Counted from the stretch's first letter, positions 31,598-32,345 are shown. The stretch: DNA of 64,000 bases from an uncultured Clostridium sp. (GCA_946411515.1 CAMKEH010000001.1:98087-162086); one strand, 5' to 3'. Notes: generated from the sequence alone by a model not told the origin. Made by a program: numbers and translations.

Positions 31598-32119
31598 TTA
31601 TTGAAATTCATTCCATTCACCTAATTTTTTTTCTAACACCTTAAAATCAACTGTATTTTTTATATAGCCTATATCTACATTTTTTATTTTTTGATTATAT
31701 ACTATTTTAGCATATTTAACTATTTTGTTAGTATTGCTATTAATATATCTTAATTCTCCTAAAATTACTTGTTTATATTTTAAGTCTTTTTCATCTTTTA
31801 TTATGTATGGCTCTAATTCTGTAATTGGTACTGGAATCATATTACTTATTCTTAATGTACCATATAAACGTCCACCTTCATGTATTCTTATTATCGTTTT
31901 TGTATCATTTCTAATTATCTTTTTTTCATAATTAATATAATCAGATTTTTTAGGTGATGACATTAGAATATAATAATTATATCCATTTATGGTTAATACA
32001 ACACCTATGTATTTTCTTTTATATGTTCTTGAATCTTCTTTATTATCGTAAATTCTTTTATCGAATTGCATTAAATATTTTATATACTTATCACTAATAC
32101 TATATAAATTTAATTTCAT
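31598..32119 (-). CDS. toxN: type III toxin-antitoxin system ToxN/AbiQ family endoribonuclease toxin
   Basis: 173 aa, size and sequence character of ToxN/AbiQ; immediately downstream of a tandem ~39-nt repeat array and an intervening terminator hairpin, the defining type III TA architecture. Confidence 0.7.
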   Translation of the reverse strand: MKLNLYSISDKYIKYLMQFDKRIYDNKEDSRTYKRKYIGVVLTINGYNYYILMSSPKKSDYINYEKKIIRNDTKTIIRIHEGGRLYGTLRISNMIPVPITELEPYIIKDEKDLKYKQVILGELRYINSNTNKIVKYAKIVYNQKIKNVDIGYIKNTVDFKVLEKKLGEWNEFQ

Positions 32120-32173
32120 CTATTTACATCTCCTAAAAAAGCAAAGGAAGTGTATCAAAGTGATACCTTCCCT

Positions 32174-32300
32174 CGATTTTAACTTTCTCAATTATAAGGC
32201 TGTGAAACACCCGATTTATAACTTTCTCTATTTATAAGGCTGTGAAACACCCGATTTATAACTTTCTCAATTATATGGCTGTGAAACACCACGATTTTAT
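32174..32300 (-). ncRNA. toxI: ToxI-like antitoxin RNA: ~3.3 tandem repeats of 38-40 nt
   Basis: Plus-strand CGATTT(T/A)TAACTTTCTC(A/T)ATT(A)TA(A/T)GGCTGTGAAACACC three times plus a partial unit; terminator-like hairpin GGAAGGTATCA..GATACACTTCC plus T-run between array and toxN. Confidence 0.7.
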
Positions 32301-32304
32301 CTAT

Positions 32305-32345
32305 ATTTATTATACCATTCTTTTTATTGCAAAGTCAAGCAATTG
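32305..32345 (-). promoter_or_regulatory. sigma-A type promoter of the toxIN locus
   Basis: Minus strand TTGACT-N18(including TGg)-TATAAT just upstream of the repeat array. Confidence 0.5.

Follow-up and report, generated by a model that had tools for sequence, protein, structure and literature searches.

We report that a 64,000-nucleotide stretch of DNA from an uncultured Clostridium sp. (GCA_946411515.1, CAMKEH010000001.1:98087-162086; referred to as the window, in which all unprefixed coordinates are counted) carries a toxIN locus, a type III toxin-antitoxin (TA) module in which a repeated RNA, ToxI, is the antitoxin and ToxN, an endoribonuclease, is the toxin. The locus is very probably a complete, apparently functional module that was acquired horizontally and that lies between the stop codon of valS and the terminator preceding the spoIIA promoter. 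This reading is based on the full-length homology of the encoded toxin, its conserved Ser/Lys motif, the architecture of the locus, the conservation of the whole unit despite divergence of the toxin, covariation within the terminator hairpin and the alignment of the repeats with authentic ToxI. On the minus strand, from 32345 to 31598, the cassette consists in order of a promoter, a leader, the repeats, a hairpin followed by six uridines (U6), the sequence AGGAG and a 173-aa open reading frame (ORF), with every element at the place where an initial annotation of the window had put it. The elements of the cassette are as follows:

32309..32338, minus strand: toxIN promoter (consensus scan; box conservation in 23 species)
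32178..32300, minus strand: toxI antitoxin array (Tandem Repeats Finder, TRF; same unit 5' of toxN in ~30 species; junctions read directly)
32135..32174, minus strand: intrinsic-terminator-like hairpin plus U6, between toxI and toxN (folding z-score; covariation)
32130..32134, minus strand: ribosome-binding site AGGAG, 10 nt 5' of the ATG (read from the sequence)
31598..32119, minus strand: toxN, 173 aa, ToxN/AbiQ-family endoribonuclease toxin (Pfam, PADLOC and PDB matches)

The 173-aa protein is ToxN/AbiQ-like, as initially predicted. In the profile comparison proposed with that prediction, it matches the Pfam family ToxN_toxin (PF13958) with 123.8 bits (gathering cutoff 25; E = 9.7e-36) across positions 1-159 of the 159 in the profile, and PADLOC AbiQ at 4e-40. 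Its phmmer matches in the PDB are AbiQ (4GLK, 9.3e-17), E. coli ToxN (7D8O, 7e-16), ToxN_Pa (2XD0, 1.3e-15) and ToxN_Bt (4ATO, 1.9e-11). AbiQ, the best match in both the PDB and PADLOC, is encoded on plasmid pSRQ900 of Lactococcus lactis, a Firmicutes host, and is ~30% identical to the window protein. ToxN_Pa, the toxin of the archetypal type III TA/abortive infection (Abi) system ToxIN of Pectobacterium atrosepticum pECA1039 (PDB 2XDB/2XDD), is 26% identical. The family as a whole is large, as a library clustered at 50% identity holds 1,159 representatives at E <= 1e-3 and 333 at E <= 1e-10. The active site of ToxN_Pa is formed by Tyr29, Lys33, Thr52, Ser53 and Lys55, and mutation of Ser51 in AbiQ abolishes its RNase activity (PMC5086642). 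When the window protein was aligned with ToxN_Pa and nine diverse relatives (11 sequences), the T52-S53-P54-K55 motif of ToxN_Pa (TSPK) was matched by S54-S55-P56-K57 (SSPK) in the window protein, S55 and K57 were invariant in 11/11 sequences, and Lys33 was conservatively replaced by R35. The catalytic Ser51 of AbiQ likewise aligns with S55.

The array 5' of toxN is the top tandem repeat of the 64 kb, with a TRF score of 209 (runner-up, 85) for 3.2 copies of period 40 at 91% matches (32174-32297), and its 20-nt core occurs three times as compared to 0.01 occurrences expected by chance. The near-identical tandem 38-40-nt units described in the initial annotation are indeed present as three full units at about 32295-32256, 32255-32216 and 32215-32178 (40, 40 and 38 nt), plus a partial unit. 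The leader 5' of the first unit ends in AUAAAAUCG, and four A-rich junctions (AAAAUCG, UAAAUCG twice, AAAAUCG) bound exactly three units. The cleavage site of ToxN_Pa is AA^AU, and AbiQ cuts at the A-rich site A^AAA (PMC5086642). Since the window junctions contain AAAU, cleavage at the ToxN_Pa site would split the array into exactly three monomers (40, 40 and 38 nt); the limits given here for the units assume that the window toxin cuts as ToxN_Pa does. In all loci with a toxin 68-88% identical to that of the window, the unit follows the consensus GGUGUUUCAC-AGCC-(variable 7-10 nt)-GAGAAAGUUAUAAAUCG, and in a promoter-to-ATG alignment of 23 species the repeat cores and A-rich junctions (UUAUAAAUC) are invariant while the internal loop of each unit drifts.

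Could the repeats be something other than an antitoxin, such as a cis-regulatory leader of the ORF, a repeat within a coding sequence or AT-rich repetition that arose by chance 3' of valS? Rfam 15 gives no match to them at E <= 10, but this silence is uninformative because the authentic ToxI array of pECA1039, used as a positive control, is also missed by Rfam 15, even at E <= 1. The same alternative might draw on a spurious 72-aa plus-strand ORF that overlaps the repeats and on a 12-nt exact identity, GAGAAAGTTATA, which ties the 3' part of the toxI unit (32214-32277) to the last valS codons (32443-32466). However, in other genomes the array always occurs with toxN and never with valS, it aligns to authentic ToxI, and a chance origin is excluded by the repeat statistics, which together make a role other than antitoxin exceedingly improbable. 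The 12-nt identity itself may have arisen by chance, the DNA being AT-rich, or may be microhomology that served in the insertion. The repeat sequence does not appear in the searchable literature, where the only match was a birch primer with no relation to it, and in RefSeq a 'hypothetical protein' coding sequence is annotated across the authentic ToxI array of pECA1039 (positions 1172-1393 of locus L069). In type III TA loci, annotation systematically overlooks the RNA half or labels it wrongly.

Alignment with ToxI suggests how the repeat may fold. The canonical ToxI sequence is a 100% match to pECA1039 (NC_011767.1), where the array lies upstream of annotated ToxN. It was aligned, using one consensus per variant, with 18 window-type units, 12 units of the Lachnospiraceae/Ruminococcus types and one unit from a Bacillota metagenome-assembled genome (MAG), and the resulting 32 units align nearly gap-free. 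The window unit is identical to ToxI_Pa at 20 of 36 aligned positions, and the two are bridged by a Ruminococcus unit (L048) that shares 27/36 with ToxI_Pa. The ToxI template (Blower et al. 2012) consists of two nested stems, each of 3-4 bp, together with a short loop 2a-1b, a loop 1b-2b that varies and a G before stem 2b. In the corresponding model of the repeat, stem 1 pairs GGUG with NNCC, and stem 2 is formed between six bases of the loop and the six that follow AAUU/AAGU; stem 2 reads UUUCAC/GAGAAA in the window type, CUUC/GAAG in L048, UCCC/GGGA in L044 and UUGC/GCAG in ToxI_Pa. The bases of such a ToxI-like pseudoknot can pair in 75.8% of alignment cells, as compared to 42-57% in every slid control. 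Three stem-2 pairs have changes on both sides, and the covariation score was reached by 0/500 shuffles. The G that opens stem 2b, like the C with which it pairs, is unchanged in 32/32 units. In this model, the window repeat resembles ToxI_Pa in its GGUG..NNCC stem 1, its loop-to-downstream stem 2, the invariant G before stem 2b and the AAAU junction, whereas it differs in having a longer loop 1b-2b (8-10 nt) and a stem 2 that reaches further to the 5' side of the loop (UUUC/GAAA). The loop length places the window unit in 'Group II' of Blower et al. 2012.

Several features of the alignment limit the support for the pseudoknot. The window-type stem 2 contains one A.A mismatch position in 18/18 variants, the stems are invariant in the close clade and hence uninformative there, and a rival local hairpin, GUG-UUU-CAC, is a less well supported but plausible alternative, pairing in 85% of cells with zero compensatory changes. 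Non-standard cells also occur in stem 1. A hairpin in the 3' half of the unit, predicted in the minimum-free-energy fold of units 1 and 3, was rejected, as it is no better than in shuffles and is absent from unit 2. The pseudoknot that the initial annotation proposed to look for has its overall pairing and its compensatory changes in its favour and the mismatch in the window-type stem 2 against it; judged from the aligned units, it appears to be the best-supported fold of the repeat, with moderate support that does not amount to proof.

The window shows the three features that define toxIN loci in Blower et al. 2012, namely a protein homologous to ToxN/AbiQ, a terminator before the toxin gene and tandem repeats before the terminator, and the canonical type III TA architecture initially claimed for it is therefore confirmed. 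ToxIN_Pa has the same order of promoter, ToxI repeats, terminator and toxN, with 5.5 copies of a 36-nt repeat as compared to 3.2 copies of 39-40 nt in the window, and it is plasmid-borne in an enterobacterium, whereas the window locus is chromosomal in a Gram-positive anaerobe. Members of the family have repeats of 31-62 nt in 1.9-5.6 copies, with means of 38.1 nt, 2.8 copies and a 168-aa toxin (Blower et al. 2012), and the window, with a 39-nt repeat, 3.2 copies and a 173-aa toxin, lies near these means. The initial annotation had suggested that the unfamiliar repeat may mark a distinct subfamily; this was not borne out, because the repeat aligns to ToxI with the same predicted stem and loop layout and its length, its copy number and the size of the toxin sit at the family means. 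The locus is instead a lineage-specific variant within the toxIN family and not a separate family.

The promoter of the cassette has a -35 box TTGACT (32338-32333), an 18-nt spacer with a TG before the -10 box, and a -10 box TATAAT (32314-32309), as first described. With 11/12 consensus matches it is the best promoter-like site in 31000-32600. As promoter-like sites are no more frequent in this AT-rich region than chance predicts (12 found, 13.8 expected), the call rests on conservation: the -35 TTGAC and -10 TATAAT are invariant in 23 species and the spacer between them varies. A perfect 13-nt inverted repeat, TATATTTATTATA / TATAATAAATATA (32302-32314 and 32352-32364), flanks the promoter, with one arm overlapping the -10 box, and may be due to chance, given the AT-rich sequence. 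The hairpin between toxI and toxN (32174-32135) is GC-richer than its surroundings and has a folding energy of -15.6 kcal/mol (z = -5.9; 0/200 shuffles fold equally well). Across the 23 species it pairs in 95% of cells, as compared to 47-69% with the 3' arm slid by 1-3 columns, and five pairs have compensatory changes on both sides, a count reached by 1/500 shuffles; its loop drifts. These data are good evidence that the hairpin has been kept under selection. What is observed is a conserved intrinsic-terminator-like hairpin, and its description as an 'attenuator' that allows partial read-through draws on analogy with other systems. A GGAG stands at the matching place before the toxN start in the relatives. 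In a terminator scan of 31000-32600, nothing terminator-like separated the toxI promoter from the valS stop, so valS transcripts may read through into toxI.

The cassette is conserved as a unit in other genomes. A scan of one genome per species yielded 68 toxIN loci, 50 of which have a 37-41-nt tandem array directly 5' of the toxin. The ~800-bp promoter-repeat-terminator-toxN unit is kept in ~30 other uncultured Clostridia species with toxins 68-88% identical to that of the window, and the DNA homology to these related loci starts ~40-75 bp 5' of the -35 box and ends exactly at the toxN stop codon; the conserved unit is therefore the ~800-bp cassette alone. NCBI already gives toxins at 77-88% identity in Clostridia MAGs the name 'type III toxin-antitoxin system ToxN/AbiQ family toxin'. 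Such loci (JAGBDU010000004, JAFRCC010000025; Clostridium sp. CAG:245, FR880061) share the 39-nt repeat family, the promoter and the terminator, and differ in their sites, which include conjugative-element-like regions, tandem toxN pairs and a position downstream of pheT. No annotation or description of their RNA part was found. By the similarity of its toxin and its repeats, the window locus belongs to this Clostridia-MAG subfamily. Some members show variant arrangements. Locus L012 has a single toxI unit between promoter and terminator (~5860-6003), with AAAAUC junctions on both sides and an intact 173-aa toxN, and L098 (4234-5519), like L099-L101, has tandem ToxN genes of 164 and 172 aa, both full-length for PF13958; the L098 pair lies among BacA, uracil phosphoribosyltransferase (UPRTase) and transketolase genes, and its second ToxN is associated with 2.2 window-type repeats. 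IMG/VR contains only relatives at 32-36% identity to the window toxin, and a phage origin of this toxIN subfamily was rejected on that basis.

Other observations argue against a functional module. Tyr29 of ToxN_Pa aligns with a non-conserved residue, Arg31, in the window protein, although the alignment is least certain in that loop, and an AlphaFold2 model built from a 24-sequence alignment was poor (predicted local distance difference test score, pLDDT, 54; predicted template modelling score, pTM, 0.47), too poor for a fold search; the fold is already settled by sequence homology. In a conspecific strain (L070), toxN has a frameshifting 133-bp deletion (L070:5191-5379; window 31803-31935) that ends the product after 61 residues, and toxN is disrupted in 4/31 close relatives, which shows that the toxin is dispensable and sometimes lost. 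The replaced tyrosine and the broken genes are what a decaying locus, a neutral relic with a non-functional toxin or RNA, would offer. The window toxN, however, is full length and keeps the invariant S55 and K57, and the promoter boxes, repeat cores, junctions and terminator pairing, which neutral decay would erase, are kept in ~23-30 species, so that we regard a relic as improbable. In the close clade toxN is intact in 26/31 loci. The promoter, toxI array and terminator of L070 are 100% identical to those of the window. Loss of the toxin thus comes ahead of loss of the antitoxin, which is the order expected of a TA module.

The position of the cassette points to an insertion. Its upstream flank is valS and its other flank is spoIIAA/spoIIAB/sigF, and the surrounding features are the following:

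32431..35091, minus strand: valS, upstream flank, 886-aa ORF (Pfam tRNA-synt_1, Anticodon_1 and Val_tRNA-synt_C on an identical contig)
31286..31597, minus strand: lineage-specific spacer 3' of toxN, outside the unit common to toxIN loci
31266-31475, minus strand: 67/69-aa orphan ORF with a good ribosome-binding site, in the spacer downstream of toxN
31257..31285, minus strand: cassette-ending terminator hairpin AAAAAGAACCU...AGGUUCUUUUU (terminator scan; folding)
31129..31232, minus strand: conserved spoIIA promoter region with two TGTCGAA-like motifs; flank, outside the cassette

Contigs of the same species, recognised by an identical SpoIIAA, share the valS-toxIN-spoIIA order, and one of them (L071) is 100% identical over 1,312 nt. 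We surveyed 80 metagenome loci with SpoIIAA 57-89% identical to that of the window. In ~30 of these, valS lies directly 5' of spoIIAA, with a gap of 148-650 bp (often 177-191 bp) and no ToxN homologue, as compared to 1,302 bp in the window; these empty sites corroborate the initially proposed insertion between spoIIA and valS. Homology to the empty-site relatives stops at ~31232 on the spoIIA side, where 75-92% DNA identity begins in the 31129..31232 region, and at ~32351-32430 on the valS side. Empty sites are arranged in the order valS stop, terminator hairpin, two TGTCGAA-like motifs and spoIIA promoter. The two motifs (GTCGAAAACTTCT ... TCGACAAAACTTCT) are common to all relatives and resemble Spo0A boxes, which they may be. 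The window hairpin at 31257-31285 (-12.6 kcal/mol, z = -3.9), the only terminator found in the 31000-32600 scan, is the positional equivalent of the empty-site valS terminator, being at an equal distance from the spoIIA promoter motifs. The cassette and ~310 bp of orphan sequence are therefore placed after the valS stop and before what appears to be the old valS terminator.

The orphan sequence shows no homology to other toxIN loci, sister sites or empty sites, and its length varies between strains; in L070 a second deletion of ~48 nt shortens the orphan ORF. This ORF has no Pfam or NCBIfam match, and it was rejected as a third component of the module, as it has no homologue beside other toxIN loci, no family match and a length that varies between strains. 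The GC content of the cassette is 0.20-0.24 as compared to 0.25-0.33 in the flanks, a difference too small to serve as an argument from base composition. Direct repeats around the cassette are weak AT-rich matches, such as 24 nt at 79% (31304-31327 vs 32354-32377), and are probably due to chance. A link between toxIN and genes for aminoacyl-tRNA synthetases (valS here, pheT in L006, weak class-I matches in L011, L021 and L024) was also dismissed, as it does not exceed a rough chance expectation.

Because the site is empty in ~30 relatives, 0/68 other toxIN loci adjoin valS or spoIIA, and the closest homologues lie among conjugation genes, the cassette is, as far as genome comparison can tell, a real insertion that was acquired horizontally. 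These closest homologues (87-88% identical) are found among TraG/VirB4-like, ParB, topoisomerase, relaxase-like, RadC and TED/SpaA adhesin genes, i.e. in conjugative-element-like regions. On the same grounds, the description of the locus as phage-defence cargo in a housekeeping neighbourhood seems sound, by analogy with characterised systems. The main alternative concerns only the biological role, as it shares the molecular mechanism and is compatible with defence: the locus could be a selfish addiction module, or the remnant of an integrative and conjugative element (ICE) or other integrative element once at the valS 3' end, that gives the host no phage protection and persists solely because cells that lose the antitoxin are killed. 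The company kept by the closest homologues fits this alternative, as do the deletion of toxN in one conspecific strain and the ability of ToxIN_Bt to stabilise a plasmid through sporulation (PMC4615649). It is also favoured by a sister locus at this site (L102:2150-2359), where an in-frame fusion joins a phage-integrase fragment (PF00589, 8.4e-10) to a duplicate of the final ~20 valS codons, which marks the valS 3' end as the integration site of a past integrative element; pilin-like (N_methyl) genes lie between the two valS ends. However, no integrase, att duplication or other mobile gene was found in the window cassette, characterised ToxIN systems protect against phage (PMC10853763), and the toxin is intact in most species, in unrelated chromosomal contexts. 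We therefore view a purely selfish role as rather unlikely, though deserving of weight, and retain the reading of a functional, horizontally acquired toxIN module.

A second type III system occupies the same gap in close relatives. The two closest sister lineages (L102 and L159; ValS 91-93% identical) carry cptIN between valS and spoIIAA:

L102:2364-3066 and L159:2100-2510: cptIN at the sister sites, corresponding to the window gap 31129-32430

At the sister site, a TTGACA-N18-TATTAT promoter is followed by 2.1 copies of a 51-nt repeat, then by a GC hairpin and the gene for a 161-aa CptN. The CptN protein scores 166.9 bits on NCBIfam NF047359 (L102), the CptIN model that gave no match to the window protein, and it matches PDB 4RMO at 6.6e-24, with no Pfam or PADLOC match; in L159 cptN is shortened to 66 aa. 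CptIN of Eubacterium rectale (PDB 4RMO) follows the same logic of a repeated RNA antitoxin and an endoribonuclease toxin, whereas its toxin belongs to another family, its repeats (51 nt x 2.1 copies) differ from those of the window, and its complex is a heterotetramer with a different pseudoknot (PMC5086642). In L006 (4661-6525) and L018 (~4440-6520), cptIN and toxIN stand in tandem, ~0.5 kb apart, downstream of pheT, and it is possible that a composite cptIN-toxIN cassette underwent differential loss in the window and sister lineages. It is thus partly shown that the valS-spoIIA gap is a swap site at which type III TA cassettes are exchanged, or from which they are differentially lost out of a composite cptIN-toxIN.

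The gaps of other relatives hold unrelated cargo, and the valS-spoIIAA site is therefore variable. This cargo includes a 191-aa ORF with a DUF402 protein (L112/L117/L121:2420-3690), a 297-aa ORF of an unknown family on the opposite strand (L166/L167:2830-3723) and a 94-aa ORF with a weak MazE/AbrB-like match (L110:3496-3780). On the other side of valS, just upstream of it in the window (35437-36271, minus strand), a DUF6036 nucleotidyltransferase gene (168 aa) overlaps a 111-aa ORF with no family match. A DUF6036 + 111-aa pair that is 64-78% identical adjoins toxIN in L006, where the tandem is flanked by an HD-domain ORF, a Fic protein and this pair in a small TA islet, and no copy was found in the valS regions of the relatives. 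The pair may be a further two-gene accessory, TA-like module, in which case valS would be flanked by such modules on both sides.

On the pattern of characterised toxIN systems, in which processing, ring assembly and activation by transcription shutoff have been described (PMC5086642; PMC10853763), the module might work as follows. A constitutive sigma-A-type promoter would transcribe the toxI array, and the conserved hairpin would stop most transcripts, so that antitoxin RNA is made in excess while a fraction of transcripts reads through into toxN. ToxN, a predicted sequence-specific endoribonuclease, would cleave the precursor where the A-rich junctions lie (UAAA/UCG, probably AA^AU), releasing three monomers of 38-40 nt. 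Each monomer would form a small pseudoknot with single-stranded tails. Through these tails it would bind two ToxN molecules and cover their active sites (S54/S55/K57), so that RNA and protein close into an inactive ring, like the triangular 3:3 heterohexamer that characterises the toxIN family. Should transcription of the locus stop, classically through phage-induced host shutoff, the unstable RNA would not be replenished, and free ToxN would be expected to cleave cellular and phage RNAs and to abort the infection. By the same addiction logic, any mobile element bearing the module would be stabilised.

Both toxIN in the window and cptIN in the sisters lie immediately upstream of, and co-oriented with, the spoIIA operon. 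As type III systems fire when their unstable RNA is no longer made, it is conceivable that the position is no accident and that a module next to spoIIA is transiently activated in the forespore, before that region of the chromosome has been translocated. This 'transient genetic asymmetry' logic is known for spoIIAB in Bacillus subtilis, and the proposed activation would be analogous to the killing of plasmid-free forespores by ToxIN_Bt. We consider this very improbable; if true, it would couple an RNase toxin to sporulation or to the exclusion of phage from spores.

Taken alone, the locus is one more toxIN in a family of >1000 sequence clusters, in which the RNA half goes unannotated in MAGs. 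It is part of a toxIN subfamily found in gut and rumen Clostridia, which is large and coherent and was previously undescribed, though annotated by NCBI, and the alignment set assembled here (promoter, 39-nt ToxI variant and covarying terminator) could seed a covariance model for ToxI, which is apparently absent from Rfam. The turnover at the valS-spoIIA site fits what is known of defence and TA hotspots and is mildly interesting in that respect: at one site, related genomes form a natural series of an empty gap, toxIN, toxIN with a deleted toxN, cptIN and a truncated cptN, which shows the gain, swap and decay of type III TA cassettes.

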